NCBI GenBank assembly: GCA_017540815.1
Contig: JAFYAI010000016.1
Location: forward strand, 666-64,665
DNA from: Spirochaetales bacterium
Lineage (GTDB): Bacteria; Spirochaetota; GWE2-31-10; MWDO01
Direction: 5' to 3'
DNA length: 64,000 bases
Below are positions 12,457 to 52,890 of the stretch, in pieces (within the stretch, counting starts at the first letter, position 1; each line of letters opens with the position of its first letter). The notes under the pieces are model-generated. The model searched no databases. It saw only the letters and a list, made by a program, of their open reading frames with translations, and was not told the DNA's origin. The position numbers were made by a program, and so were the translations under genes.

Positions 12457-13794
12457 ATGTCAGAATACATTGAGTCAGAGACCATTGAACTGAAAGAAAG
12501 ATTTACAGATGCTATTTGCAGAGAAATTGTAGCGTTTCTTAACTCTGACGGCGGTCAAATCATTATCGGTGTCCGAGACAACGGAGAAGTTGTCGGAGTC
12601 GATAATATCGATGAGACACTGAGAAAAATATCTGACATTATAACTATGCGAATCGAACCTAATCCGCAGGATGAAATTCGCTCTGAGTTAAAGTTTGATA
12701 ACGGGAAAACGCTTATTTGCATCAAAATATCAAAGGGTGTTCATAACATTTACTGTCAGAAAAAATACGGTTTTTCTTCCGGCGGTTGTGTTGTCCGCAT
12801 TGGCACCACTTGCAAAGAAATGACTCCCGAACAAATCAAAATCCGATATGAGAAAAACTTTATCGATGATGAATACATGGTCAAGAAAAGATCATCAATG
12901 GGTAATCTGTCTTTTCGGGAGCTGAAGATATACTATGCCGAGAAAGGCTTCCATTTAAGTGACTCTTCCATAGAATCGAACCTGAATCTGCGAAATAAGG
13001 ACGGGCAATACAATCTGCTGGCGGAACTTTTAGCAGACAGGAATAATATCCCGTTTATTTTTGTGAAATTCAACGGCACTGACAAATCAGCCATTTCCGA
13101 GCGGAACGACTACGGCTATGGCTGCATTCTCTCGGTATATGAAAAACTCAAATCACGCCTTCAGGCTGAGAATACTTGCATTTCTGACACAACAGTCCGT
13201 CCGAGGAAAGACACTTATCTGTTCGACTACGACTGCGTAAACGAAGCCGTAATGAATGCGTTGGTTCACAATGATTGGACTATTACAGAGCCGCAGATCT
13301 CGATGTTCAGCAACAGAATTGAGATACTGTCACACGGCGGTCTGCCACACGGTATGACCAAACAGCAATTTTTCGACGGCATCAGTCATCCGAGGAATGC
13401 AACACTTATGCGGATTTTCCTCAATATGGGTTTGACGGAACATACGGGTCACGGCATTCCGACTATTGTCCGTCAATACAGCAAAGATGTGTTTGAGATA
13501 GCCGACAATTATATCCGCTGCGTCATTCCATTCGATGAAAAAGTTGCAGCATCAATCGAAAATGTCGGTTTGAATGTCGGTTTGAATGTCGGTTTGAATG
13601 TCGGTTTAAACAAAACCGAAAAAGCGGTACTGGCTCTGCTCATCGGCAATCCTACCCTCACAGCAGAATCGATCTCCGAACAAATCGGCGTAACGAAAAG
13701 AACGATAGAGCGTGCATTATCGGAACTGCGGCGTAAAGGCAAAATTGAACGACTCGGCTCCCGCAGAGACGGCAGCTGGAAAGTGGTGGGGTGA
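12457..13794 (+). CDS. AlbA_2 (divergent AAA / Schlafen-like) plus HATPase_c_4 putative DNA-binding regulator. These are often annotated as RecG-like.
   Basis: N-terminal ELKE…REIVAFLNSDGGQIIIGV motif. C-terminal HTH-like region. Internal GLNVGLNVGLNVGLN repeat. Confidence 0.75.
   Translation: MSEYIESETIELKERFTDAICREIVAFLNSDGGQIIIGVRDNGEVVGVDNIDETLRKISDIITMRIEPNPQDEIRSELKFDNGKTLICIKISKGVHNIYCQKKYGFSSGGCVVRIGTTCKEMTPEQIKIRYEKNFIDDEYMVKKRSSMGNLSFRELKIYYAEKGFHLSDSSIESNLNLRNKDGQYNLLAELLADRNNIPFIFVKFNGTDKSAISERNDYGYGCILSVYEKLKSRLQAENTCISDTTVRPRKDTYLFDYDCVNEAVMNALVHNDWTITEPQISMFSNRIEILSHGGLPHGMTKQQFFDGISHPRNATLMRIFLNMGLTEHTGHGIPTIVRQYSKDVFEIADNYIRCVIPFDEKVAASIENVGLNVGLNVGLNVGLNKTEKAVLALLIGNPTLTAESISEQIGVTKRTIERALSELRRKGKIERLGSRRDGSWKVVG
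13559..13610 (+). repeat. In-frame tandem 12-bp repeat (aatgtcggtttg, about 4.3 copies) encoding (GLNV)n
   Basis: Direct reading of 13561-13608. The same 12-mer occurs twice in tandem and once inverted in the gene's own promoter. Confidence 0.9.
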
Positions 13795-17628: not shown

Positions 17629-18951
17629 ATGGAATATTCAAAGCGAAATATAGACAAGATTTTAATCGAATGGAAAAGAGAACAAAACAGGAAACCTCTG
17701 CTTTTACGCGGAGCAAGACAAGTCGGGAAAACTTCAGCTGTTAGAGAATTGGCTAAAACTTTTAAACATTATATCGAGATTGATTTCCTTGCTCCTGAAA
17801 ACAGTGATGTAGCGAACCTTTTTACAGGAAATTCTTCCATAGGAGAATTATGCCAAAAAATCGCTGTTATAAAAAACACACCGATTGCAGAAGGTGAAAC
17901 TCTGATTTTTCTAGACGAAATTCAAGCGTGTCCCAAAGCAATAGAGAAACTTCGGTATTTTTATGAGCAAACTCCCAATTTACATGTAATTGCTGCCGGC
18001 TCTCTCTTGGAGTTTGCATTGGAGGGACTGCCGTCTTTTGGTGTCGGGCGGATTCGTTCGATTTTTATGTATCCTCTGAGTTTTGAAGAATTCCTATCAT
18101 TTCAGAATCTTGAAATGCTTCGCAGTGAAATGAATAATGCATCTGTGAAAAAACCGCTTGCGGAAATATTCCATAATAAACTTATAGAGGAGCTGAGGAC
18201 ATTCCTAATTATAGGCGGAATGCCGGAGGTCGTATCAACATGGTGTCAAACGCATGACTATCTCAAATGCCGTCAAATCCAAAACGACTTGCTCATTTCG
18301 TATCAGGACGACTTCGCAAAATACCGCAGAACTGTTCCGGCTTCAAGGATTCAGGAAGTGTTCCGTTCCGTTGCCGAACAAGGGCAAGGTAAATTTATAT
18401 ACAAACATGTTAATCAGACCCTGCGAACAGATCAAATAAAAAATGCTTTAGACACACTAATACTTGCCGGTCTTGTTTACCCTGTTACTCACACGGCAGC
18501 TAACGGCATTCCGTTAGGAGCAGAAATCCGAGAAGATTACAGGAGAATGATATATTTCGACACAGGACTTCTACAGCGTCAGCTGAATCTCAAAGCAGAA
18601 TCCATACTTCTGTCAGGAGACCTTGATGTCATCAACAAAGGTGCAATTGCCGAAACCTTTGTTGGAACAGAGCTTATGAAAGCAGGCTCATTCTACGAAA
18701 AAAACGAGCTGTACTGCTGGCACAGGGAACAAGCAGGCAGCAATGCAGAAGTTGATTATGTAATCCAGCGAGAAAACGAGATTATCCCAATAGAAGTCAA
18801 AGCAAGCAAAAAAGGCTCTATGCAAAGTTTACGGCAATTCTTGGCTATCAAACAACGACCTTACGGCATACGCACTTCTTTGGAAAATTTCTGTGAATAT
18901 GATGACATTAAAGTTTATCCTCTGTATGCGATAAAAAACTCACTTTTATAA
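17629..18951 (+). CDS. AAA_14 plus DUF4143 family ATPase
   Basis: Walker A GARQVGKT. Walker B IFLDEIQ. Conserved DUF4143 C-terminal region. Confidence 0.85.
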   Translation: MEYSKRNIDKILIEWKREQNRKPLLLRGARQVGKTSAVRELAKTFKHYIEIDFLAPENSDVANLFTGNSSIGELCQKIAVIKNTPIAEGETLIFLDEIQACPKAIEKLRYFYEQTPNLHVIAAGSLLEFALEGLPSFGVGRIRSIFMYPLSFEEFLSFQNLEMLRSEMNNASVKKPLAEIFHNKLIEELRTFLIIGGMPEVVSTWCQTHDYLKCRQIQNDLLISYQDDFAKYRRTVPASRIQEVFRSVAEQGQGKFIYKHVNQTLRTDQIKNALDTLILAGLVYPVTHTAANGIPLGAEIREDYRRMIYFDTGLLQRQLNLKAESILLSGDLDVINKGAIAETFVGTELMKAGSFYEKNELYCWHREQAGSNAEVDYVIQRENEIIPIEVKASKKGSMQSLRQFLAIKQRPYGIRTSLENFCEYDDIKVYPLYAIKNSLL

Positions 18952-21571: not shown

Positions 21572-24169
21572 TCAATAATCAATACTTTTCAGTATATTCC
21601 TCATCTTGATCTTCTCACCTTCCAGCACATTCTTATTGAGCGTGTAGATACCTGTGTATTTATTATACGAATACTGCGAAGCGAAGAACTCCTTATCATC
21701 ATCACTCTGTATTCGTTTGATGATATTATTCGTGAATTTAGCCGCCCTAACCTTCTCAGGTATCTTTATCAGAGCCTCTTTACGCTCTCCGTGTTTCTTA
21801 ATGCTAAGCTTCTTTTCTTTATTCTTTTCGTTTCGCTCCATATTAAGCTCATCTTCACGGCGTTTACGAGCCTCTTTTTCTTCCTGTTTTTTCTTCTGTG
21901 CGGCGATCTTCTTTTCAGTATTCTCCTGTATCTTCTGTTTCTTGATCTCAGCCATTCGGGCTTTCTCTTCTGGCGTGATGATCTTAATATCAGTAACGAC
22001 TTCCTTGCTTGTAGACTGCAGTTTGAATGCTACAACCAGGTTACGCATCTTCTCAACCTCTTGCGAGAGCTGATTTCGCGTTTTGCCGAGGCTTTCGATA
22101 GATACGATATTCTTATCTGATACATCGGAGAATGAGTTGATGATGTCCATAATGACCTGCGAGCCTTTGGACTCCTCTTCAGTTGCAGTATATATCTGCT
22201 CAACAATGTCGGTAATATCATTGATACTTCCGTTAATCTTATCAAGTGCGTCGATAACTTCTGTAGTCTTATCAACACCTATCTTGATTCGTTTCTCATT
22301 CATCTTGATAAGGTCACCAATCTTATTGGCAGCATCATTAGACTGCAGAGCAAGTTTACGAATCTCAGTAGCAACGACATTGAATCCTTTACCTGCTTCA
22401 CCGGCTCGGCTTGCCTCGATCGCCGCATTAAGTGAGAGCAGTCGAGTCTTTTCAGAGATGTTATTGATGAGCTCTGTGATGAAGTTAATCTCTTTACTTG
22501 TATCAGCTATCTTGTTAATCTCATCAACCATTTCATTGATAACTTCGCCTGAATTCTGTGACTGCTTTTTCGCATTCTCAGCCAGATTAAGCGACTGACG
22601 CACATTCTCGGCGACCTGCTTGATCGAGAAGTTAAGCTGCTCAAATATAGACGAACTTTCGCTGATAGATGCAGCCTGATTCTTAATCGTCGTATCGAAG
22701 TCTTTGATAACACGGTCAAGTGTACTCTGATAGCCGACGAGGTTATTAGATGAACGCTGCACATTGGACAGAACTTCGTTAATAGTTCCGAGCATTCGTT
22801 TGAAGTTTCGATACAGATGACCGATCTCATCTTTAGACTCTGATGTAATCTCTACATCAAGATAACCCTGACTGACTTTGTTTGTCGCATAGTCAAGTGT
22901 AACCAGCGGATATGCCAGTGAGTTACTGATCATGATAGAGATCGGGATGATCGCAGCGATAATCAGCAGCACGATGAGCACAACCTGTCTCAAGATCTTA
23001 TATATAGGCATGTGGATAAGCTGTTTCGGATAGAAGTATACTACTTTAATGCCTGATTTCATATCAGAGAAGTTATTGGTATCGACAATATATGTCAGAT
23101 ATGTATTCTCCCGATGCCGCTCCACTTCATCACCGTTGATGATCTCCTTGCGGACATCTTTGTACTTCATATCGAAATACATACCGAAGTCGCCTTCTTT
23201 AACCTCATTGCCGAGTTTATCTTCGTAGTTGTCATTCAAGACATCAGCAACAAGCCCCTGAGTAAGTATGTCGGGGTTAGTTGTGATCATATTGGTATAA
23301 ATATCAGACTCAGGATCGTTGTCATACTCAGGTTCGAGGACTTTGCCGCCCCAGTTAGAATACATAATCTCATTCTTATAGTCCAATACATATATAGTTC
23401 CACTGGCTATACCGGATATATTCTCCATACATTTGGCAACGAAACCGGAGTCACCTTCATTGTTGAGGATAATCATAACGAAGTTGCGGAAGTCGGTATC
23501 ATCAGGATCGGGAGAACTGTTCTCATCCATAACAGGCCACAGCAGTGTAGTATAAGAGTCTGTTTCTGAGAATGTGGACTTCGCCAATTTACCCATTTTT
23601 ACAGAAGCAGCAGTTTTTACACCTGTTTCGTCGTATTGTCGCTGGACATCCTTAACTGCATCGAGGAACAGAGGATCACTCTCCATCATTGTGCCGACAT
23701 TAGGCTCGATATTGATGTTGGCACCACGCCAAAAAGTATAGCTCTCACCTGTTATGGGGTTATCCAGATAGCGATTGACGATATACGGGATACCAGGAAT
23801 GTTAAGCACAACTGTTAAGTTACGCAGTCCGCGCTTAGTCGCCTCATCTCCAACGATAGCGGTATCTATATCCTTGACCTGAGTTCTATCGGAGAAGCGT
23901 TCCATATACATATTATTCTTGATTTCCGCCGGCTCGATCAAATTCGGGATCTTGTTCGCATAGTCATTATACGACGCATTAATATTCGTCACCGCCTGAA
24001 ACAACAAAGTTTCGTTAAGCAGCAGTTTCTGCCGCTCCAAGTGATTGAAAATTCTTGTCGAAGTATGAGTCAAAACGATTGCAAGCGGAATAATCGCAAT
24101 CGGAATAATCGATAAAATCAATCGCCATTTAATCTTTAATGTTCTTTTTTTTAATAAAGGCATTGTCAA
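21572..24169 (-). CDS. Methyl-accepting chemotaxis protein with an extracytoplasmic sensor, HAMP and MCP signalling domains, and a long K/E-rich C-terminal tail
   Basis: N-terminal TM helix, then a second TM helix. Signalling-domain signature SRAGEAGKGFNVVATEIRKLALQS. Confidence 0.85.
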   Translation of the reverse strand: MTMPLLKKRTLKIKWRLILSIIPIAIIPLAIVLTHTSTRIFNHLERQKLLLNETLLFQAVTNINASYNDYANKIPNLIEPAEIKNNMYMERFSDRTQVKDIDTAIVGDEATKRGLRNLTVVLNIPGIPYIVNRYLDNPITGESYTFWRGANINIEPNVGTMMESDPLFLDAVKDVQRQYDETGVKTAASVKMGKLAKSTFSETDSYTTLLWPVMDENSSPDPDDTDFRNFVMIILNNEGDSGFVAKCMENISGIASGTIYVLDYKNEIMYSNWGGKVLEPEYDNDPESDIYTNMITTNPDILTQGLVADVLNDNYEDKLGNEVKEGDFGMYFDMKYKDVRKEIINGDEVERHRENTYLTYIVDTNNFSDMKSGIKVVYFYPKQLIHMPIYKILRQVVLIVLLIIAAIIPISIMISNSLAYPLVTLDYATNKVSQGYLDVEITSESKDEIGHLYRNFKRMLGTINEVLSNVQRSSNNLVGYQSTLDRVIKDFDTTIKNQAASISESSSIFEQLNFSIKQVAENVRQSLNLAENAKKQSQNSGEVINEMVDEINKIADTSKEINFITELINNISEKTRLLSLNAAIEASRAGEAGKGFNVVATEIRKLALQSNDAANKIGDLIKMNEKRIKIGVDKTTEVIDALDKINGSINDITDIVEQIYTATEEESKGSQVIMDIINSFSDVSDKNIVSIESLGKTRNQLSQEVEKMRNLVVAFKLQSTSKEVVTDIKIITPEEKARMAEIKKQKIQENTEKKIAAQKKKQEEKEARKRREDELNMERNEKNKEKKLSIKKHGERKEALIKIPEKVRAAKFTNNIIKRIQSDDDKEFFASQYSYNKYTGIYTLNKNVLEGEKIKMRNILKSIDY

Positions 24170-24260
24170 TCCCCTCGATATACTAAATCCGTTTCTGATT
24201 GTGAATATACACCAATCATATTATCGAAAAAAAAGAGTTAAATGTTTAGAGAATTTGAAT

Positions 24261-24296
24261 AAAAAAGCACGCAAGTGTGCGTGCGTGCTTTTTTAT
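24261..24296 (-). terminator. Terminator after the GH53 gene
   Basis: aaaaaagcacgcaagtgtgcgtgcgtgcttttttatt. Confidence 0.6.
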
Positions 24297-25549
24297 TCAA
24301 ATTCTTTTATAGATTGCAAAGCTTTGCCTTCTCCATCAAACATACCCCATTTATAGTTGCCGTAGAGATCGCCGCCCCATGCCAAGACTCCGGCAGCACC
24401 TGCGGAGCGGCTTTCTTCCATTATATGTCTTATAATATTAGCCTGATTGGACGGAGTGCCGCAGACATAACTGACTGTTCCGCTCTCAGCGGTTGTCAGA
24501 TCGTAGTAAACGCTGCCGGTATTCGGATCAATCATGTGAATATATGTATTATGCTGAGCGGCATAACCGTCACCTGAGTCATCATGCCAGTGAGCAGAAC
24601 ATTCTGCGACAATAATCTTGACGCCGTATTTCTTAATCTGCCTATCGATTGTCTTCTTCAAAATGGCGATAGTACCGTGATTGGCTTCCCACGGATAATA
24701 AGAGTAACCTATCACATCGAATGGCACTCCGGCATCCTTTATCGGATTGAAGAACCAGCCCCAATCATGATTACCGTCCGAAGCAACATGCAGAACTATA
24801 TTTATTGACTTGTCGAACGCACGCACTGCATCTGCTCCGGCTTTCAGATATTTTGTGAATGTGTCGGGTAAGAAGTCTGTTTCATTTTCATCTCCGTATG
24901 CCCGACCTGCGAACTTAAAACGCTCGTGCTTATTGTTATCAGTGTAGTCAGTCGCCTTATCGACGAGCAATCCGCGGTTGATCTCATTGCCGACCTGCAC
25001 ATACTTCGGAACGATGTTTGCCTGAGTTTTGATCTCATTTAACACGGAAGTCGTGTATTGCGAGAGAGCTTTCGCTATTGCAGTGACACTTTTCAGCGAT
25101 TCCCATTCTTGGGGAACTATCTGCCTGCCCGGATCTGCCCATGTATCGGAATAATGGAAGTCCAGCATCAAATCAAGTCCGGCAGCCTTAATCCGCTTAG
25201 CCATATTTATTGTGCGAGACAGTGTATTGTCTCCGTCGTTAATGCCCTCGGCATACAGACTCGGATTATTCCATATTCGCAGGCGGATTGTATTCACGCC
25301 GTGAGCCTTCAATATATCTAGAAAATCCTTCTCCGTGCCGTCAGTGTCTTTCCAGCGGATATTATATTTCTCCTCATACCAATCGACATACGATGCGTCG
25401 AAGCCTTTGATGAAATCAAAGGCGCTTTCATCCGAAGAAGAGACATTCTTCACAACATCAGCACCGGAATATTCGCTGCATGACGAAATAAGAACAGCTG
25501 CAAATATTGCTGTTACAACAGTAAAAAAAGCGTGTTTCATAGTTATCAT
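24293..25549 (-). CDS. Glycoside hydrolase family 53 endo-beta-1,4-galactanase, exported or lipoprotein
   Basis: DFHYSDTWADP and VQVGNE catalytic motifs. N-terminal signal with LISSCSE lipobox-like cysteine. Confidence 0.88.
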   Translation of the reverse strand: MITMKHAFFTVVTAIFAAVLISSCSEYSGADVVKNVSSSDESAFDFIKGFDASYVDWYEEKYNIRWKDTDGTEKDFLDILKAHGVNTIRLRIWNNPSLYAEGINDGDNTLSRTINMAKRIKAAGLDLMLDFHYSDTWADPGRQIVPQEWESLKSVTAIAKALSQYTTSVLNEIKTQANIVPKYVQVGNEINRGLLVDKATDYTDNNKHERFKFAGRAYGDENETDFLPDTFTKYLKAGADAVRAFDKSINIVLHVASDGNHDWGWFFNPIKDAGVPFDVIGYSYYPWEANHGTIAILKKTIDRQIKKYGVKIIVAECSAHWHDDSGDGYAAQHNTYIHMIDPNTGSVYYDLTTAESGTVSYVCGTPSNQANIIRHIMEESRSAGAAGVLAWGGDLYGNYKWGMFDGEGKALQSIKEFE

Positions 25550-25593
25550 AGTTATATCCTTGTGTGAGACCTAATCTTAGAGTCCCGATATGT

Positions 25594-26865
25594 TCATATC
25601 TCAACTGCTGATACATCCAATTTCCCACTCATCAGCTTGGGCAATAAAGTATCACGAATGATAGATAATTGTCTATTTTGTTTACAGTTTGAAAAGATTT
25701 GTTTGAACAGTGGTTCAACAAATTTTGCAAATTCTTTTACTTTGGGATTTTCTAAATCGTATATCCAGATTGCATTTACATCATTTTGATTTATTCCTGG
25801 GATTGCAGCTTTTCCTCCGTTATTAGCTAACCAGTTCCTTACATATTCTGTGTTGAAATAAAAATATGCGAATTCATTTAAACCTTTATCGTAAAAGTCT
25901 AACTTAAATACGTGTTCGTTTATATAACATTCGTCGTATGGGAAGCCTTCTCCGAACATTGAGAAATGAGGAATAAAGGTTCCTGGTTTACCGCCATCTT
26001 TATACAAGAGTAGTTCATAGCCATTTATTTTTCCTTTTCCTAATGAATCAGCATATTCGCGAGGAATAAACTTATTTGATGAAAAATCGAATACTCCTAA
26101 TTGCTTTACATTTTCGGCACCAATACTTGGTACACCCTCTGCAACTGCACCACCTTTAGGTCTTTTTCCTGTTTCCAAAAGATGAGGAATATCTGCTACT
26201 TGTACCATTTTTAATGAACGAGGAATCATTGTTCCTATTGGAGATTCTATTTTTTCTTCTGTTCCAAATGGTTCAAAGTCCACAAACCAGCTCTTAAATA
26301 TCGCCTGTGCCATCTGCTCCAGATTGTCATTGATCCTGTTATTCAACTCTATCTTGTCGTCGAGGGATGAGAGAATTCGTGCGATTTTTTGCTGGGTGGG
26401 GAGAGGGGGAAGATTTATTGATAGATTTTCTATATCAGATGGTTTTATAGCAGGATAGGCTGAAGTAGTCTGCTCTGCTATTGCATGTAGAGATTCTGTA
26501 TTTTCATTTTTAATTAAATTATAAAAAACAAAATTTGGATCAGCTATTGTTTTGTTAATATGTAATACCGCGAATCCTGTTGATACCAAGAAGTTTTCTG
26601 GTTGTTTTTTTATAATTCCGAAATGTTTCTGGTTAGGACGAACGGTTGAATAAATAATGTCATTAATTTGAACTTTTCTTCTTGCTCGACTAGGTAAAGA
26701 TTCAGAAGATAAATCTATAAATTGAATATCAGAGATTTTGTTTTCTGTAATGTTTCCAGTATCAAGATAATTCACAAAAGTCCAATTATCTTTTTCAGAG
26801 TATGAATTTATATTGGTTTTACATATATCTCCAAGTTTACATTCTTTCCACGCTTCCATTTTCAT
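25594..26865 (-). CDS. hsdS: Type I restriction-modification specificity subunit HsdS, full length with two target-recognition domains. No hsdM or hsdR in the window.
   Basis: Conserved central repeat LPPLPTQQKIARILSSLDDKIELNNRINDNLEQMAQAIF and C-terminal LLPKLMSGKLDV. Confidence 0.85.
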   Translation of the reverse strand: MKMEAWKECKLGDICKTNINSYSEKDNWTFVNYLDTGNITENKISDIQFIDLSSESLPSRARRKVQINDIIYSTVRPNQKHFGIIKKQPENFLVSTGFAVLHINKTIADPNFVFYNLIKNENTESLHAIAEQTTSAYPAIKPSDIENLSINLPPLPTQQKIARILSSLDDKIELNNRINDNLEQMAQAIFKSWFVDFEPFGTEEKIESPIGTMIPRSLKMVQVADIPHLLETGKRPKGGAVAEGVPSIGAENVKQLGVFDFSSNKFIPREYADSLGKGKINGYELLLYKDGGKPGTFIPHFSMFGEGFPYDECYINEHVFKLDFYDKGLNEFAYFYFNTEYVRNWLANNGGKAAIPGINQNDVNAIWIYDLENPKVKEFAKFVEPLFKQIFSNCKQNRQLSIIRDTLLPKLMSGKLDVSAVEI

Positions 26866-27917
26866 TCTCCGCCATGCTGCAACCTGTAAATCTCTTTTTG
26901 CTGTTCAATTTCTGCCTTGAGTTGCTCTTGTGTCGGCAAATATGTCAAATATTTTGCCATAAAAAGATTGTCGCTGTCATGCAGAATTGAATATCGGGCT
27001 ATATCTTCGCTTGTTTCACCGCAGAGCAGAATGCCAATTGTAGGATTGTCACCTGGCTTGCACTTCAATTCATCGTACATTCTGACATACATATCCATTT
27101 GTCCGACATCTTGGTGAGTAACCTTACCCATCTTCAAATCAATCAGCACATAACATTTTAATTCAATATTGTAAAAAACAAGGTCAATAAAATAATCTTC
27201 TGTGTCTGTTACAATGTGCTGCTGGCGGGCGACAAAAGCAAATCCGCGTCCCATTTCCATAAGAAAATCACGAATATGTGAAAGAATTGCACTTTCCAAT
27301 TCTGTTTCTGAAAAAGAATCTTCTGTTCTAAAGCCTAAAAACTCCGCAACTATGGGATTTTTTAGTAATTCAAATTTTTCAGCCTGATATTCACAAGTCT
27401 TTTCTTTCATTTCCGCAATGACTTTTTCTTTTTGGGGAGACTGCAAAAGTCTGTAGTAATATTGAGTGGCAATGTTTCTGTCTAAAGTACGAGAAGCCCA
27501 ATTTTGCTCGCTCGACTCTTTCAAATACCAGAGTCGGGCGTTTTCGTCTGAAACTCGTAGCAATGCACGGTAATGAGTCCATGTAAGATTGTGAACGCAT
27601 GCGTTCACAATTTCTTGGTTGGGAAAATACTCATAAAATTTTCTGTAATAAAAAAGATTCCGCCTGCTGAAATTTTTGCCAAACTCTTTTGTAAGTTCTT
27701 CTGCAAGCATATCAATCAGATGGGTTCCATACTCTGCACGGCTCTTGCCGTTCTGTTCCTGCTCAACTATGCGCTTTCCGATGTTCCAGTAAGTTTGAAT
27801 CATAACAGAGGACACGGCACTGTATGCGGCATTTCGCCCGTCTTGAATTATTTTCTTAATGTCATTTACAAATGTCATCTCTGATTTTTCAAGTTCATTT
27901 TTCATTTTGTCCTCCAA
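26862..27917 (-). CDS. DUF1016 / YhcG-like PD-(D/E)XK nuclease-fold protein. Probable ATG start at 27905.
   Basis: QTYWNIGKRIVEQEQNGKSRAEYGTHLIDMLAEEL N-region and C-terminal FIDLVFYN…LIDLKMGKV nuclease core. Such genes are typically embedded in Type I RM loci. Confidence 0.8.
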   Translation of the reverse strand: MEDKMKNELEKSEMTFVNDIKKIIQDGRNAAYSAVSSVMIQTYWNIGKRIVEQEQNGKSRAEYGTHLIDMLAEELTKEFGKNFSRRNLFYYRKFYEYFPNQEIVNACVHNLTWTHYRALLRVSDENARLWYLKESSEQNWASRTLDRNIATQYYYRLLQSPQKEKVIAEMKEKTCEYQAEKFELLKNPIVAEFLGFRTEDSFSETELESAILSHIRDFLMEMGRGFAFVARQQHIVTDTEDYFIDLVFYNIELKCYVLIDLKMGKVTHQDVGQMDMYVRMYDELKCKPGDNPTIGILLCGETSEDIARYSILHDSDNLFMAKYLTYLPTQEQLKAEIEQQKEIYRLQHGGE

Positions 27918-27952
27918 GTTTACATTCTTTCCACTCTTCCATTCCCCCCCCC
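27912..27952 (-). repeat. hsdS 5'-end remnant (31/33 nt identical to the first 11 codons of hsdS) directly preceded by a 9-nt poly-G tract (poly-C on + at 27944-27952)
   Basis: Minus strand reads GGGGGGGGG a ATGGAAGAGTGGAAAGAATGTAAACTTGGAG. hsdS reads ATGGAAGCGTGGAAAGAATGTAAACTTGGAG. Confidence 0.85.
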
Positions 27953-27992
27953 TATGGTTTTAACCGCAAGCCAAAGGCGAGTCGGCTCACAA

Positions 27993-28880
27993 TCACACAT
28001 TTTTCAACAGATGCTCTATCAGAGCGGCATCCAGAACTTCAAAGGCAAAGCATTTTTTGCCCAAATCTTTGAGCGACGCACCAATATGATACAATGCTTT
28101 CTGGTCGATTATCTTAAAGCGATCGTGCATTTTTGTTGTATGTTTTACTGTGAGCGTCGGGTACTGAGCATTGAACTTCCGGATGTCCTGTGCTGTCAGT
28201 TTTGTTTGTGGGTCGGTATAAATGATGGCGTTTACATTTTTCTTTTTCTTGGCAAGGCGTTCCAAAACGCTCATATCCACATAGTTGTCTATCAGAATTA
28301 TTTCCTGCTTAGCCTGTGCAATAAAGCTTTCAAACTTTGCGTAAGCGTCAAAAATCTGCCCCTGAAAGAAAATTCCCTGAGTGTCTTTTACATTGTATTT
28401 GTCGATTAAGTCGAATAACTCTTCAACCTTTTTATCCGTTTCCTTTTGATGAATATTCGTATCCAAGAGTTGCTTTTTTATCGTATTGATTTCTGCAAAC
28501 ACCTGCACATTGCTCTGAAAAAAGTGTCGCATCGCTACAAACGCCCGCATAATCTGAATGTTGACTTCCACTGCGGTCTGACTCTTCAGAACTGACGAAA
28601 GCATGGCAACCCCCTGTTCCGTAAAGGCATAAGGCATTGTCGAAGAATGTTTCATTGTCTCGAACCGGTCACAATTTGTGACCAGTTCCTCTTTCTCTGT
28701 TTCGTTCAAAGAAAACATAAAATCTTCAGGAAATCTTTCAATATTCCTTTTTACCGCCTGATTCAGAACTTTTGTTTCTGTTCCATACAGCTCCGCCAGG
28801 TCACGGTCAATCATCACCTGCTGATTTCTGATTGTGAGAATTTTTGATTCTATCGTCTTTGCCGTGATTTCGTTGTCCAT
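27993..28880 (-). CDS. ORF6N-domain protein (KilA-N / Bro-N related DNA-binding N-domain)
   Basis: ILTIRNQQVMIDRDLAELYGTETKVLNQAVKRNIERFPEDFMFSL matches the ORF6N signature. Confidence 0.75.
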   Translation of the reverse strand: MDNEITAKTIESKILTIRNQQVMIDRDLAELYGTETKVLNQAVKRNIERFPEDFMFSLNETEKEELVTNCDRFETMKHSSTMPYAFTEQGVAMLSSVLKSQTAVEVNIQIMRAFVAMRHFFQSNVQVFAEINTIKKQLLDTNIHQKETDKKVEELFDLIDKYNVKDTQGIFFQGQIFDAYAKFESFIAQAKQEIILIDNYVDMSVLERLAKKKKNVNAIIYTDPQTKLTAQDIRKFNAQYPTLTVKHTTKMHDRFKIIDQKALYHIGASLKDLGKKCFAFEVLDAALIEHLLKNV

Positions 28881-28984
28881 ATTTCATTCCTTTATATTGC
28901 CGCCTTTCCATTTTTTTTTGCCTCCAAAATTTGTCCTAATTTTGGGGGTCAGTTCAACCCGCGGATAGGGGCAGAGGGTGAGGT

Positions 28985-30298
28985 CTAATAACACTTTATC
29001 TCCAGCAGTCGGCACTCGATCGGACCGTTCCAAACTTCAATGCGGCGGCTGGTGCGAAGCCCGATATGCTTCATCGCTTCAAAGTTGCCTGTGAAGATAT
29101 ACGCAGACGACGAAGTACAGTGGTGCTTAAGGAAGTCGCCGATGTCCTTGTAGAGAGCGAATACTGTCTCCTCGTCATCGGACTCCAGCCGCTGCCCGTA
29201 GGGCGGATTGGTGATGATGAGTGCATTCTCATAGTTATCCTGACAGTGACGGAAATCATCATTAATAATAGTAATCATCTTGTCGAGTTTGAGTGACTTT
29301 ATAATCTCGGACGCTTTCTTCGCAGTGAGTCTGTCAATCTCATAGCCTGTCAGTTTAATATCACTCAGAATAATCTGCTTTTGCAGATCACTTCGGGCTC
29401 GCTTGTAAGCGGCTTCATCAAAGTCAGTCCAATTCTGAAATGCGAATCTGCGGTGCAGATTAGGCGGGGTCCGTGTAGCGATGCAAGCCGCCTCAATGAG
29501 CAGCGTGGCACTCCCGCAGCAAATGTCCAGCACATTAGTCTTGCCATCCCAGCCGGATAACTCAAGCAGTCCTGCGGCAAGTTCTTCTTTGAGCGGAGCA
29601 GCGAAATGCGTATCCTCACGATAGCCACGCTTGAACAGCGGTATGCCGCTGCTGTCCAGATACAGAGTAACATCTCTGCCTGTCAGATACGCTATGACAT
29701 GGATGTCAGGATTATCCTTATCGACGCTCGGCCGCTGCCCGTCGTTGAACTTCCGCTGAGTGTCGAGGATTGCATCTTTTATACGATGGATCACATACTG
29801 AGAATGTGTCAGCTCATCGGAAGAGCCTTTGACATCGATGCGGATCGTCTTGTCAATACCGAACATCTTGTGCCAGTTAATCTTCTTAGCCTGATAGTAA
29901 AGCATATCATAATCATGAGCAATGATAGTCTTAAGCGGACGCAGGATATTCACTGCACTGCGGACAGCCATATTCGCCTTGTATAGCGTATAGTTGTCAC
30001 CTGTAAAGAATACGGTAGACCGTGAAACGGCTGTCACATTCGCACCGAGAGCAGCCAACTCATCGGCAAGGACATTCTCCAGACCACGCTGACAGATAGC
30101 GGTGTATTGCTGATTGCCTTGTGCATCAGCGTGATACTCAGGATGTTTCGGGCGGGATGAGGTCTGCGGCTCATCTGTGTATTCGTCCGGCTGATGTCTG
30201 TCATGCCGATGCTTCGCAAAATGCGGTTTCCCGTCGAAGTGCCTCTTATTGTGCCCATCGAAGTTCGTTTCTGTATATTTATTTGATGTATATGCCAT
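28985..30298 (-). CDS. THUMP-domain class I SAM-dependent methyltransferase (RlmL/YpsC-like) with a His/basic-rich N-terminal extension
   Basis: NPPYGQRL motif IV. THUMP-like region upstream. Possible later start. Confidence 0.8.
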   Translation of the reverse strand: MAYTSNKYTETNFDGHNKRHFDGKPHFAKHRHDRHQPDEYTDEPQTSSRPKHPEYHADAQGNQQYTAICQRGLENVLADELAALGANVTAVSRSTVFFTGDNYTLYKANMAVRSAVNILRPLKTIIAHDYDMLYYQAKKINWHKMFGIDKTIRIDVKGSSDELTHSQYVIHRIKDAILDTQRKFNDGQRPSVDKDNPDIHVIAYLTGRDVTLYLDSSGIPLFKRGYREDTHFAAPLKEELAAGLLELSGWDGKTNVLDICCGSATLLIEAACIATRTPPNLHRRFAFQNWTDFDEAAYKRARSDLQKQIILSDIKLTGYEIDRLTAKKASEIIKSLKLDKMITIINDDFRHCQDNYENALIITNPPYGQRLESDDEETVFALYKDIGDFLKHHCTSSSAYIFTGNFEAMKHIGLRTSRRIEVWNGPIECRLLEIKCY

Positions 30299-30308
30299 TT
30301 GTTCCTTT

Positions 30309-32513
30309 TTATCTCACCTTGCCATTAACCACATTCTGAGTAATGATGTCGCTGCCGCCGAGTTTCATCTGCTGCCCCTGAGCAAGCACATGGTTATCCT
30401 TGACGGTGAGCTTCACTTTGGCAAAGTCATCAATAGTTATCTCATTTGCAGGAGCGGCATTCACCGCATCAATCGTTACAATATCGCCGATATTCGCTTT
30501 AGGACAGAAGAGGACTTCGACTGTAGTTTTCTTCTTATCCTCGGCTGCAAGTATCATACCGAATGACTCAACGCCTCGCAGATTGGCAGGCTTGAGATTA
30601 GCCACGACTATGACATTCTGACCAAGCAGCTGCTCCGCTGCATAGTATGGCACAAGTCCCGATACTATCTGACGAATATCGCCGCCACCGAGATCTATCT
30701 TCTCCACATAGAGTTTGTCTGCTTCGGGATGACGGTTGATCTCGATGATTTTGCCGACTTTGAGCTGCAGTTTGGCAAATGCTTCAAGATCAGCAGTATC
30801 GTCAGCGGCAGTCTCCTGTGAGCCTGCGAACTTAGCCTGCAACGCTTCGACTTGCTTCTTGTCAAGTTTGGCAAACAATATCTGCGGCTCGTTAATCTTC
30901 TTGCCTTTGAGTTTTGTATAGTCTCCGATATTGTCAAGAACGATGTCGGTCTTGGGCAGATTAAGAGTTGCGAAGACTTTCTCAACTGTCGCAGGGATAA
31001 ACGGATATAGCAGCAGTGCAATATCTTTGGTAAAGCATGCCAAACTGCCCAACATTGTTGCAGCCTTATCTTTATCTTCCTTTATAACTGCCCACGGGGC
31101 ATTGTCTTGGAAGAACTTATTGCCAGCTGAACAGATCGCCAACACATCAAGCAGAGCTTTCTTCAGTTCAACTGCCTCAAAGTCAGCGATGATAGTCTGC
31201 TTCTCTTTCTGCATATCTATGATGGAGAATATCGAATTCGGCGAAGCATTGTCGAAATCAGGGATAACGCCGTCGAAGAAGCGATTGATGAACTGATAAA
31301 CTCGGTTCACAAGGTTAGCAAAGTTGGCGATGATCTCACCGTTAGCCTTCTCCATGAAGTCATTCCAAAAGAACTGCGTATCACTCTTCTCAGGACGGTT
31401 GCGAATAAGATAATATCGGAACAGATCAGCATCTATGCCTGTATCGCGAGCCTGATCTCCGAACACGCCTGTGCCTCGGCTCTTAGAGAATTTCTTGTCT
31501 TCGTAGTTTAGATACTCCGTAGAACTGATGGTCTTAAGCAGAGTCCACGGCTTGCCTGTCCCCATCAGGCTTGACGGGAATATAACTGTATGGAACGGGA
31601 TATTGTCCTTGCCGATAAACTGATACAGGTCGGTATGGTCAGGATCGTGCCACCACTTATCGATGTCGAAACCGGCAGCGGCAGTGATCGAGATATACCC
31701 GATCGGAGCATCGAACCATACATAGAAGACTTTATCTTCATAGCCTGCCAAAGGTACCGGCACGCCCCATTTCAAGTCTCTTGTGATACATCGCTTCTGC
31801 AAGCCCTGCTCTATCCAGCCTTTAGCCACAGAGACAGCATTGTTTGACCAGCCGTTCTTCTCGGCAGTCTCATCAATCCACTTCGTCAGCTGCGGTGCTA
31901 CTTTCTGCAGGTCCAAGAATAAATGTCTTGACTGTCTGAATACCGGCTTCGATCCGCAGACTGTGCACCGCGGATTCTTCAGTTCAGCCGGATCAAGCAG
32001 TTTGCCGCATTTGTCGCACTGATCACCCTTAGCCTGCTCATATCCGCAGTGAGGGCAAGTGCCGTCTACATATCTGTCTGCCAGCGGCATATTGCACTTC
32101 TCGCAGAATGGCTGAGTTACTGTGCCTTCGGTAATGTATCCATTGTTATACAAGTCTCGGAATATCTCCTGCACAACTTTGGTCTGCTCCGGTGTGCTTG
32201 TCCGCCCGAATGCGTCGAACTGAATATTAAACCAATCGTATATCTCTTTATGAATGGCATGATATTTATCGCACAGCTGCTTAGGAGTAACATGTTCCTG
32301 CAAAGCACGAGTCTCAGTCGTCGTGCCGTATTCGTCATTGCCGCAGACATACAGCGTCTCATATCCTGCCATACGGCAGTATCTGGCAAAAACATCTGCC
32401 GACAGTACACAGCCTATTATGTTCCCTAAATGCGGAATGTTATTTACATACGGCAGAGCCGAAGTGATTAATCGTTTATTTGACATAAGACGCTCCTTTT
32501 GAACCTCACCCAT
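30309..32513 (-). CDS. metG: Methionine--tRNA ligase with a C-terminal tRNA-binding (EMAP-like) domain. Likely start at the MSNKRL Met near 32486.
   Basis: HLGN (LPYVNNIPHLGNI), KFSKS (KMSKS-type) motif, four-Cys zinc knuckle. Confidence 0.95.
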   Translation of the reverse strand: MGEVQKERLMSNKRLITSALPYVNNIPHLGNIIGCVLSADVFARYCRMAGYETLYVCGNDEYGTTTETRALQEHVTPKQLCDKYHAIHKEIYDWFNIQFDAFGRTSTPEQTKVVQEIFRDLYNNGYITEGTVTQPFCEKCNMPLADRYVDGTCPHCGYEQAKGDQCDKCGKLLDPAELKNPRCTVCGSKPVFRQSRHLFLDLQKVAPQLTKWIDETAEKNGWSNNAVSVAKGWIEQGLQKRCITRDLKWGVPVPLAGYEDKVFYVWFDAPIGYISITAAAGFDIDKWWHDPDHTDLYQFIGKDNIPFHTVIFPSSLMGTGKPWTLLKTISSTEYLNYEDKKFSKSRGTGVFGDQARDTGIDADLFRYYLIRNRPEKSDTQFFWNDFMEKANGEIIANFANLVNRVYQFINRFFDGVIPDFDNASPNSIFSIIDMQKEKQTIIADFEAVELKKALLDVLAICSAGNKFFQDNAPWAVIKEDKDKAATMLGSLACFTKDIALLLYPFIPATVEKVFATLNLPKTDIVLDNIGDYTKLKGKKINEPQILFAKLDKKQVEALQAKFAGSQETAADDTADLEAFAKLQLKVGKIIEINRHPEADKLYVEKIDLGGGDIRQIVSGLVPYYAAEQLLGQNVIVVANLKPANLRGVESFGMILAAEDKKKTTVEVLFCPKANIGDIVTIDAVNAAPANEITIDDFAKVKLTVKDNHVLAQGQQMKLGGSDIITQNVVNGKVR

Positions 32514-51327: not shown

Positions 51328-52890
51328 TTATGGATTACTCATTCTTATAAGTCCGGTCTGATCAAATACAAGTGCCGTCTTGGTTATATGCTTCCCGCTT
51401 GCAATATATGGCTCAGCATACTTTTTATCCTCGATCTGCTTCAACGCCGCCGCTGCCAACTCGTCAGCATTACCCTCACGGCAACATTTCAGCTCGAAGA
51501 TATACACCTTATCTTCCAGTTCCACGACAATATCCGCCCGCCCCAAAAGTGACACTCTCTCCGCTGTCGTGCGGTAACTGGTCAGTGAGAACATCATAAA
51601 CAATATATTGCGATACATATCTTCGTTATAATTCTTATCCTGCATATACGGCAGAGATGCAACAGCAGAGCGGATCAGAGTTTCCAGCTCAGCCATATCG
51701 GCATTCTCCAATGCACTGCGGAATTGCTGAATCGTACCTGTCAGTTTAGTTTCCCTAATAGGCGTAATCCGACGCATTAGGTGCTTATAAAAACCTGTCC
51801 GTACTTCAACATTAGGAAAGTCAAGCGTATAGAACCGGCTTTTTTTATCATAACTTTTTAGTGTCAGATAACCTGTCTGATACATAATCGGCAAAAAATT
51901 ATCATCTGTAGGATCGAAACTGTCGAAATCACTCTCAGCAGCCACAACATCTTCCACAAAATCTGATATGTCAGCTTCCTGATGATTAAGAATGTTCAAA
52001 AGAGACTTAGGAGTGCCGCTGCCAAACCATTTACTCGAAAATTCATTGTCAGCAAAAGCATTTATCAGACTGAACGGGTTATACACATCTGTCATCGACT
52101 TGCTGAAATGATACCCGTCATAAGTCAGTTTCAGTTTATCAAGACACTCCCGACGGCTCATCTCATTGGCAGCCGCCATATCATCGATTCTGTCCGAAAA
52201 AACAGTCAGCAGTTCTTCCTTTGTAATGCCACATATCGCAGAATATTGGTCACTCATACTAATATCACGAATGTGATTCAATCCGCTGAAAATATTCAGG
52301 TGCGGCACGCGGGTAATACCTGTCAGGAATATGAATTTCAGATATTCATCGCAGCTTTTCAGCACGCTGTAGAAATCACGAATCATTGTGCGATTGACAT
52401 TCTCGACATCGGTATATAACGCATCAAGGATGGGCTTATCATACTCATCAATGAGAACGACAACATTTTCATCGGCAGCTTCTTTCGCAGCGATAATCAC
52501 ATTCTTGAATCTGACATCATAACTGGTTGTCTCAGCCGGAGTTATATTATATTTCCGCTCATATCCGATTAGGACATCGTTAATCACAGCCCTCAGTTTC
52601 TCATTTGATTCATAACCGCTCAGTCCGAAATCAATGCGAATGACAGGATATTTCTTCCACTCTTCCTCCAACTTGGCAATCTTGAGACCTTCAAACAACT
52701 CCTTCCGCCCGTTGAAATAAGCATCCAATGTTGAGACGAGCAAACTCTTGCCGAATCGGCGCGGACGAGAGAGGAAATAAACCGTTCCGTTGTGAACCAA
52801 ATCATAAATCAAATCGGTCTTATCTGCATAAACGCAGTCATTATCGCGAAGTTTCTCAAATGTCTGTATGCCAAGCGGCAGTTTTTTCAT
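51328..52890 (-). CDS. Predicted AAA-ATPase N-domain plus PD-(D/E)XK (PDDEXK_9) C-domain protein
   Basis: Family-typical GKSLL N-region and a C-terminal ELK nuclease-fold motif (IFELKCC). Confidence 0.85.
   Translation of the reverse strand: MKKLPLGIQTFEKLRDNDCVYADKTDLIYDLVHNGTVYFLSRPRRFGKSLLVSTLDAYFNGRKELFEGLKIAKLEEEWKKYPVIRIDFGLSGYESNEKLRAVINDVLIGYERKYNITPAETTSYDVRFKNVIIAAKEAADENVVVLIDEYDKPILDALYTDVENVNRTMIRDFYSVLKSCDEYLKFIFLTGITRVPHLNIFSGLNHIRDISMSDQYSAICGITKEELLTVFSDRIDDMAAANEMSRRECLDKLKLTYDGYHFSKSMTDVYNPFSLINAFADNEFSSKWFGSGTPKSLLNILNHQEADISDFVEDVVAAESDFDSFDPTDDNFLPIMYQTGYLTLKSYDKKSRFYTLDFPNVEVRTGFYKHLMRRITPIRETKLTGTIQQFRSALENADMAELETLIRSAVASLPYMQDKNYNEDMYRNILFMMFSLTSYRTTAERVSLLGRADIVVELEDKVYIFELKCCREGNADELAAAALKQIEDKKYAEPYIASGKHITKTALVFDQTGLIRMSNP

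Follow-up and report, generated by a model that had tools for sequence, protein, structure and literature searches.

Introduction

Accessory genes of the DUF1016/YhcG, ORF6N, RhuM and Fic types are found embedded in Type I restriction-modification (R-M) operons, and passages of two earlier reports note the co-occurrence of DUF1016 with Type I R-M (PMC3424549, PMC9881135). We analysed such a neighbourhood in a Spirochaetales bacterium, a 64-kb stretch (64,000 nucleotides, nt) of contig JAFYAI010000016.1, hereafter the window, which is taken from a 168-kb contig (L007 among our loci). A yhcG-like gene lies there immediately upstream of the specificity gene hsdS, as in the described operons, and is preceded by a short remnant of an hsdS 5' end and a run of nine G residues (G9). 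We suggest that insertion of yhcG before hsdS probably duplicated the hsdS initiation region in direct orientation, that the remnant is one of the two arms, kept as the yhcG leader, and that it is not the trace of a shufflon.

The gene order of such operons in relatives is hsdM-(ORF6N)-yhcG-hsdS-hsdR, whereas the window locus has no hsdM or hsdR in 64 kb. DUF1016 and ORF6N genes inside Type I loci are known (PMC3424549, PMC9881135); the passages on related systems in the literature that we consulted do not mention a duplicated hsdS start around an embedded gene, and relative to them the architecture described here, cargo between two copies of the hsdS start, is a small new variant.

The hsdS invertons (S. 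pneumoniae ivr/SpnIII, T. denticola Tde35405VII, M. pulmonis hsd loci) resemble the window locus in that conserved hsdS segments are common to the copies. Relatives of the ORF6N-hsdS module sit in loci of this kind, with a tyrosine recombinase, a partial inverted hsdS and 56-nt inverted repeats (compare the inverton passages of PMC7672463). The window repeat, in contrast, is direct, lies at the extreme 5' end and around a non-hsdS gene, and is accompanied by neither a recombinase nor a second specificity domain. In the pneumococcal tvr locus (SpnIV), according to the passages describing it (PMC6265443), direct repeats in hsdS sequence also bound a segment that can be excised as a circle; those repeats enclose specificity-domain cassettes, a recombinase and toxin-antitoxin genes, and the circles were detected experimentally, whereas the segment here is a nuclease gene without a recombinase, with no circle or deletion junction in the assemblies. 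The poly-G tracts of T. pallidum (tprE/G/J, tprL, tp0126), from the same genus-level lineage, resemble the window tract of 9-10 G in lying just upstream of a gene start and differing in length from sample to sample, as stated in the promoter passages of PMC7864442. The promoter that contains the tract has been mapped in T. pallidum, and reporter output there depends on tract length, whereas the window tract has no predicted promoter, is lineage-specific and is absent from related operons.

The duplicated hsdS start

On the minus strand, G9 (27952-27944) is followed by AA (27943-27942; the second A opens an ATG) and then by ATGGAAGAGTGGAAAGAATGTAAACTTGGAG. The sequence from the first of these positions that belongs to the duplication, called H here, forms a direct repeat of 32 nt (26829-26860 and 27912-27943) that is identical at 31/32 positions (97%), with the copies 1083 nt apart on the minus strand and flanking yhcG exactly. 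With up to three mismatches allowed, H occurs exactly twice in the 64 kb, both times on the minus strand, against an expectation of 0 (100 shuffles). The remnant is real and not a product of chance. In four relatives (L011, L014, L037, L040) the repeat reaches further upstream and takes in GAATGAA(A/G), which covers the Shine-Dalgarno region together with an upstream ATG.

The preliminary description had reported 31/33 identity to the first 11 hsdS codons; the resemblance stands, and the figure has to be corrected to 30/33 when the comparison is stretched to 33 nt or 30/31 from the ATG (31/32 with the preceding A). It was right that the frame of the remnant ends after 15 codons (MEEWKECKLGGQNEK, then TGA), that an intact hsdS lies about 1 kb away (identified here by Methylase_S and full-length Type I specificity matches), and that the remnant is a genuine hsdS 5' end. 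The features of the locus, in minus-strand gene order, are the following.

metG, minus strand: first in the gene order, before the THUMP/RlmL-like gene
28985-30298, minus strand: THUMP/RlmL-like methyltransferase gene, after metG and before the ORF6N gene
27993-28880, minus strand: ORF6N-domain gene of 295 amino acids (aa), upstream neighbour of the remnant (Pfam; PADLOC candidate PDC-S05)
27953-27992, minus strand: 40-nt spacer, an internally deleted small structured element with a 14-bp hairpin and a 36-nt exact match to L037:3182-3217
27944-27952, minus strand: G9 homopolymer (C9 on the plus strand), length polymorphic between assemblies
27912-27943, minus strand: remnant, the left-hand H copy, A + ATGGAAGAGTGGAAAGAATGTAAACTTGGAG (repeat and pattern searches)
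27895-27942, minus strand: mini open reading frame (mini-ORF) of 15 codons and TGA (MEEWKECKLGGQNEK and stop), ending at +11 of the yhcG start
27911-27915, minus strand: GGAGG, Shine-Dalgarno-like, 5 nt 5' of the yhcG ATG, composed of GGAG of hsdS codons 10-11 and one G
26862-27905, minus strand: yhcG-like gene of 347 aa, DUF1016_N and YhcG_C PD-(D/E)XK nuclease, the cargo between both H copies (Pfam; PADLOC candidate PDC-S02)
26829-26860, minus strand: right-hand H copy, 5' end proper of the intact hsdS (repeat and pattern searches)
25594-26865, minus strand: intact solitary hsdS, 423 aa (first ATG) or 421 aa (second ATG), Methylase_S, its start overlapping the yhcG stop (ATGA)
After hsdS in minus-strand order: GH53 gene, then chemoreceptor gene

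The DUF1016/YhcG PD-(D/E)XK gene that adjoins hsdS in the window was assigned by profile matches (YhcG_C 9.8e-53 and DUF1016_N 5.2e-46 in Pfam; PDC-S02 1.3e-138 in PADLOC), and HsdS has two specificity domains with conserved central and C-terminal regions, PADLOC Type I specificity models matching over the full length, e.g., residues 3-419 of 423. PDC-S02 (YhcG) and PDC-S05 (the ORF6N protein) are PADLOC phage-defence candidates, as yet untested. No hsdM, hsdR or recombinase/integrase was detected in the 64-kb window by Pfam annotation of 26 ORFs, including all neighbours, or by tblastn with HsdS, HsdM, HsdR and integrase queries (distant ORFs below 200 aa were not all scanned), and the integrase of locus L018 used as a tblastn query had no match in the window. 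With five HsdS proteins as tblastn queries, the window showed a single hsdS and the remnant of 10-11 aa, each on the minus strand; neither another hsdS nor another specificity domain was detected. The window locus is a solitary ORF6N-yhcG-hsdS island between the rlmL-like and GH53 genes.

The remnant in relatives and the empty site

The exact YhcG protein was found in the window's own contig and in three other assemblies of the same locus (L008-L010). At 96-97% identity, YhcG occurs in five further locus types, and in every one of them the remnant lies between ORF6N and yhcG. The remnant precedes yhcG in the window haplotype and six others, the loci concerned including L008-L016 and L037-L042, and it precedes a KilA-N-like gene in L003 and L006; the absence of the remnant from all relatives, which the preliminary description had regarded as decisive against its own reading, was checked, and relatives do carry it. 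One of them, L011, is a full Type I operon (hsdM, ORF6N, remnant, yhcG, hsdS, a 790-aa gene, hsdR), and both hsdM and hsdR are present in L011, L017 and L022. The 4-fold sites of yhcG differ by about 27% between remnant-bearing lineages, and the remnant, shared with yhcG across such lineages, is therefore old and not a local decay product. The earlier proposal that a second hsdS had existed here is not borne out: the remnant is instead a conserved leader travelling with yhcG across these lineages. A genome scan with a shared 23-mer returned three Treponema/spirochaete contigs of metagenome-assembled genomes, and a metagenome scan for the remnant-specific junction returned one locus only, of the L003 type (L006).

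An occupied and an empty version of the site were detected with another cargo. In L005, an intact hsdS comes after a DUF4143-ATPase gene, the sequence reading GGAGGGATGGA-ATGGAAGAG...CTTGGAGAT (start GGAGGGATGGA-ATGGAAGAGTGGAAAGAATGTAAACTTGGAGAT). L003 and L006 have this ATPase gene and these 31 nt too; next come GGAGGG(C/T)AAAAATG, a KilA-N-like gene and a PDDEXK_3 gene, after which a second 31-nt H opens an hsdS that shares its first specificity domain with L005. L005 and L003/L006 are an empty/occupied site pair, in which the cargo is different from yhcG and the left junction is the same (47 nt at 95.7% identity between L003 and the window). In yhcG-less relatives with a 90%-identical ORF6N gene, the hsdS ATG stands 17 nt after the ORF6N stop (ATGGCTGATTGGACTGAATGTAGACTTGGTGAT), and the window remnant therefore stands where an hsdS start belongs. 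Exact-protein look-ups gave no match for the window's ORF6N; for the 423-aa and 421-aa HsdS they gave only short contigs or the window's own contig, all with yhcG upstream, and no deletion variant.

The following observations concern insertions near starts of this kind. A second palindromic element (CAAACGGATT...AATCCGTTTG, about 85 nt) lies between yhcG and hsdS in L037 (3225-3320) and L039 (1092-1180). L039 and L040 have in addition a GC-rich insertion, about 90 nt long, exactly at the hsdS ATGG. Small insertions appear to have a hotspot in the hsdS initiation region.

The remnant as the probable yhcG leader

We suggest that the cargo was inserted after about hsdS codon 11, with duplication of the hsdS initiation region, i.e., the Shine-Dalgarno region, the start codon and the first 10-11 hsdS codons. 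The right H arm would stay the real hsdS start, and the left arm would have been retained since it is now the yhcG leader, in which GGAG of hsdS codons 10-11 and a further G give GGAGG 5-6 nt before the yhcG ATG. The inherited mini-ORF would bring ribosomes to a stop within 11 nt of the yhcG ATG, leading to translational coupling in the ORF6N-yhcG-hsdS operon. We consider this whole reading rather probable, and service as a translationally coupled yhcG leader is the most likely present role of the remnant.

Short ORFs ending at or near the start of the next gene can give translational coupling in bacterial operons. The leaders before yhcG and the other cargo resemble such ORFs in having their own Shine-Dalgarno region and ATG and a stop placed just before, at (ATGA) or 8 nt after the next start; they differ in being a recycled fragment of the downstream gene's own coding start. 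Eight leader haplotypes were aligned, and in all of them (8/8) the ATG of the mini-ORF was invariant, as was GGAGG at 5-6 nt from the cargo ATG, while 5-10 other positions of 42 varied. At the GGAGG place the intact hsdS genes have GGAGAT, GGTGAT, GAAGAT, etc., and the completing extra G is therefore specific to the leader. In every haplotype the mini-ORF, of 11-17 codons, has its stop just before the cargo start, at +4 (ATGA overlap) or at +11. A Shine-Dalgarno region, an initiation codon and termination at the next gene's start or in overlap with it are thus all kept among relatives. Programmed +1 frameshifting from the mini-ORF into yhcG at AAA-TGA was considered and rejected, since the frame relation varies by haplotype (stop at +4 or +11).

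Several points weigh against the proposed duplication and leader role. The more distant yhcG genes (82-84% identical) are located between hsdM and hsdS without any remnant. The sequence ATGAAAAATGA of yhcG itself has TGA in both other frames, so that a mini-ORF stop at this place is largely guaranteed and needs no selection; the stop position is therefore compatible with coupling and is not proof of it. The leader diverges by 7-23%, more than the 4-fold sites in close pairs and less in distant pairs, which is no clean purifying pattern, and from the non-synonymous replacement of the conserved Trp codon (TGG to CGG or AGG) one can conclude only that the peptide is unconstrained as HsdS. The route producing a duplication of 31-42 nt is an inference. 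Finally, the T. pallidum poly-G tracts just upstream of transcription starts modulate transcription, according to the passages of PMC7864442 on these tracts, and a role of the window tract is possible on that ground.

A purely neutral scar would be an alternative: a functionless remnant, persisting through short time or through homogenising conversion with hsdS. The divergence of the leader at or above the 4-fold sites among close relatives, the non-synonymous changes at the conserved Trp and Cys, and the more distant yhcG genes that work without the leader would all be expected of such a scar. It does not account for GGAGG and the start codon staying invariant in all eight haplotypes while 5-10 of 42 other positions vary, nor for the leader being lost in no haplotype despite 27% synonymous divergence and small elements inserted on both sides, and yhcG is without any other Shine-Dalgarno sequence. 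We consider the neutral scar unlikely.

The origin of the duplication

A second alternative concerns how the two arms arose. H may be an attachment or homology site for mobile promoterless cargo cassettes, each integration regenerating an H-cargo-H arrangement: a circle consisting of the cargo and one H would be excised between the direct H copies and would reintegrate into any H-bearing hsdS, through a single crossover of the Campbell type or, as in the pneumococcal tvr/SpnIV locus, through excision-reintegration catalysed by a recombinase. The deletion junction implied would read ORF6N spacer-G run-AATGGAAG(A/C)GTGG...CTTGGAGATATATGTAAAACC, and the circle junction would read from the yhcG 3' end, ...GGCGGAGAATGAAAATGGAAG...CTTGGAGGACAAAATGAAAAATGAAC.

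The recurrence of the left junction speaks for such mobility, since two unrelated cargoes (yhcG; KilA-N-like and PDDEXK_3) have H followed by GG(R)CAAAA(A)TGAAA in common, with 95.7% identity along 47 nt. The left H of L003 is preceded by the upstream sequence of the empty L005 site; before the right H there is a foreign 'ATAAAGGAATGAAA' context of a kind typical of other hsdS loci. As excision-reintegration demands, the window has direct repeats of hsdS sequence (32 nt), and they enclose 1083 nt. Direct-repeat-guided excision-reintegration is established at hsdS loci in the tvr passages of PMC6265443, and direct rather than inverted repeats are noted for a spirochaete Type I locus in the corresponding part of PMC7672463. 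Upstream of mcrBC in L024, an unrelated yhcG has likewise been inserted with ORF precision and has a 96-nt direct repeat on its flanks.

Against this, the window has no recombinase, the bounded segment encodes YhcG alone and neither a dedicated recombinase nor specificity-domain cassettes, 31 nt is short for RecA-dependent exchange, and no circular or deletion junction was found in any assembly, each contig with this hsdS having yhcG upstream. All the yhcG leaders found have ORF6N upstream, and mobility of a yhcG cassette itself is not demonstrated. Flanking direct repeats are also not general for yhcG: they are absent at 12 other loci (L017, L022, the viral contigs L027-L035 and the plasmids L043, L044 and L046, with a marginal 24-nt match only in L044) and were found only in the Treponema H group and L024. 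We regard mobile H-bounded cassettes as an improbable origin of the window arrangement.

In a wider form, promoterless defence-candidate genes would be ORF-precise cassettes that enter operons by duplicating 31-96 nt of the recipient initiation region, with the hsdS 5' end as attachment or homology site between Type I loci, and would do so independently of a recombinase or through an as yet unassigned system (cf. tvr or integron cassettes); this generalisation is quite doubtful.

A transposon-type target-site duplication was rejected: there are no transposase or terminal (inverted) repeats, the insert is ORF-precise, and the duplication is 32-45 nt vs 2-15 bp expected.

The L024 insertion is described here in its own right. 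In this locus (GCA_002309575.1, DBXP01000024.1; 4900-6160), a 74%-identical yhcG is inserted ORF-precisely upstream of mcrB/mcrC; the 96-nt repeat on its flanks comprises the last ~24 codons of a 71-aa ORF and the Shine-Dalgarno region, and a 31-aa duplicate ORF follows yhcG.

The G tract and the adjoining element

As previously described, G9 at 27944-27952 is the only long G/C homopolymer of the window (no other G or C run in the 64 kb reaches 7), and it lies between the ORF6N gene and the yhcG-like gene, both Pfam-confirmed. Its length is G9 in the window, L007 and L009 (then AATGG), G9 in L010 and G10 in L008 (both then TGAAAATGG). The tract is outside every ORF, ending 1 nt before the mini-ORF ATG and beginning 40 nt after the ORF6N stop. 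No sigma-70-like promoter was found across the tract in the window, and a promoter/terminator scan gave nothing above shuffle expectation. In the L008/L010 haplotype only, a weak TTAAAA-N15/16-GAAAAT (8/12 match) surrounds the tract, its spacer measuring 16 nt where the tract is G10 and 15 nt where it is G9; the -10-like hexamer is deleted in the window haplotype. The slipped-strand context proposed earlier is thus retained in part: the tract is of 8 or more residues and polymorphic in length between assemblies (G9/G10), but it is outside ORFs and predicted promoters. Being upstream of the mini-ORF start and in no predicted promoter, it offers therefore no ON/OFF mechanism that can be named. 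The tract is a hypermutable homopolymer (G9/G10) with no demonstrated regulatory role.

We also weighed the possibility that the tract is a slipped-strand phase-variation switch for yhcG-hsdS transcription (or translation initiation), comparable to the T. pallidum tpr/tp0126 poly-G. Its being the sole long G/C run in 64 kb, the occurrence of G9 and G10 in otherwise near-identical haplotypes (L010, L008), and the placement of the L008/L010 tract between TTAAAA and GAAAAT, with a spacer that follows its length, are in agreement with a switch. In T. pallidum, transcription starts about 4 nt downstream of such tracts, and 8 vs 10 G alters promoter activity, according to the passages reporting these experiments (PMC7864442). 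The window tract, on the other side, has no promoter-like site across it, and the L008 hexamers match at only 8/12 positions. The related operons have GGG only, and a long G tract is therefore no conserved component of the module. A change from G9 to G10 keeps the 3' end of the G run, hence the distance from the Shine-Dalgarno sequence to the ATG is unchanged, and differences between assemblies are not equal to switching within a population. A switch at this tract is, in our assessment, distinctly improbable.

The 40-nt spacer upstream of the tract is a copy of a small structured element of about 115 nt (three hairpins, z = -4.4), shortened by a deletion between CCGAC repeats; full copies lie between yhcG and hsdS in L037 (3095-3225) and L038. 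Rfam gave no match for the full L037 copy and none for L037/L039, which carry small elements between yhcG and hsdS; the element may be a non-coding RNA or a sequence similar to miniature inverted-repeat transposable elements or repetitive extragenic palindromic sequences. The element ends ...AAAACCATAGGG, where the G run begins, while related operons without the element have only TAA-GGG-AATGAAAATGG; at the tract position, L011-L016 and L037-L042 show GGG only. The tract therefore probably grew from the junction of two GGG runs, the element end and the old hsdS Shine-Dalgarno GGG.

The shufflon question and allele exchange

The preliminary description interpreted the remnant as the footprint of an hsdS shufflon, in which 15 codons are all that decay has left of another hsdS, or half of one, with the conserved 5' ends as recombination substrates. 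Several facts are in its favour. Ten contigs (L047-L056) that share one identical ORF6N protein (P0129; 90% identical to that of the window) carry hsdM, hsdS, a tyrosine recombinase gene, ORF6N, and an hsdS with a partial inverted hsdS, in at least four arrangements, with the tyrosine recombinase gene and ORF6N inside the invertible segment; in L054 and L055, the central conserved region of hsdS carries inverted repeats of 56 nt. According to the passages of PMC9881135 on DUF1016 genes, these are statistically enriched beside programmed-inversion targets, and T. denticola invertons were verified experimentally according to the corresponding part of PMC7672463. The locus type is in this sense related to hsdS shufflons, through sister Treponema invertons with a 90%-identical ORF6N, but the window copy is without the parts needed for inversion.

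The H copies are direct, not inverted, and the H repeat therefore cannot drive inversion. No inverted repeats in hsdS conserved regions were found in 24000-31000, and within 64 kb there is no further hsdS or specificity domain, hsdM, hsdR or integrase, as noted above. The same remnant end and junction recur in lineages about 27% apart at 4-fold sites and before different cargo, which is unexpected for independent decay. The structural variants expected among conspecific assemblies were looked for, and the four assemblies (L007-L010) are colinear, as is L057. The idea of conserved 5' ends as recombination substrates holds insofar as signs of homologous exchange are seen at H, but in the invertons of the relatives it is the central conserved region that holds the repeats and not the 5' end. 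The shufflon view is largely refuted for the window locus and we consider it highly improbable.

The signs of exchange at H are of two kinds. In L037, two derived changes (GAA to AAA, TGT to TAT) are common to the leader and to the 5' end of the hsdS of that locus, an indication of gene conversion between the direct copies. L008 matches the window at 98% identity across ORF6N, yhcG and H, after which its hsdS is only 34% identical in protein, and similarity returns in the central and C-terminal conserved segments. The two genes (25594-26865 of the window and L008:1803-2981) occupy the same chromosomal site (ORF6N-yhcG upstream, GH53 downstream), with breakpoints at the 5', central and C-terminal conserved segments. 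With a different hsdS at the same site, the site therefore hosts different specificity alleles, and the pattern reads as allelic replacement of both specificity domains within one species. We suggest that the H arms and the conserved hsdS segments would serve homologous exchange (gene conversion and specificity-domain replacement) and not programmed inversion.

A separate observation was made on two loci with an identical 359-aa YhcG. Downstream of it, L018 has one 407-aa hsdS, and L019 has a 181-aa hsdS and an inverted 224-aa hsdS; pEK499_p136-like and integrase genes follow in both. The difference is consistent with an inversion variant of a yhcG-containing locus.

Other features of the window

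The C-terminal ~125 aa of the ORF6N protein (residues about 170-295; 27993-28880, minus strand) have no Pfam match, the 207-aa ORF6N relatives (L011-L016) keep only the C-terminal end of this region, and the full-length protein matches PDC-S05. A 24-nt inverted repeat free of mismatches (24250-24305; loop of 8 nt, flanked on either side by A/T runs) overlaps the GH53 stop upstream of the chemoreceptor gene and is probably a bidirectional terminator. Other genes of defence-island type in the window are 12457-13794 (Schlafen AlbA_2, HATPase_c_4 and HTH), 17629-18951 (AAA_14 and DUF4143 ATPase) and 51328-52890 (AAA-ATPase_like and PDDEXK_9). The DUF4143 ATPase (17629-18951) is only 23% identical to the ATPase before hsdS in L003/L005, and no H copy was found near it.

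Implications for Type I loci

Under the duplication and leader reading that we favour, accessory nuclease genes would enter Type I restriction loci by duplicating and taking over the ribosome-binding region of the host gene, and the conserved hsdS start would be a boundary both for cargo insertion and for specificity-domain exchange. The locus is also a guard against mis-annotation, as an hsdS 5' fragment beside a homopolymer mimics a phase-variation switch, while here it is probably a leader in a locked solitary hsdS island; true invertons occur in sister lineages and not in the window copy. If cassette mobility were true, the hsdS 5' ends would be integration sites for defence genes, which would help to explain the enrichment of DUF1016-like genes around variable Type I systems.

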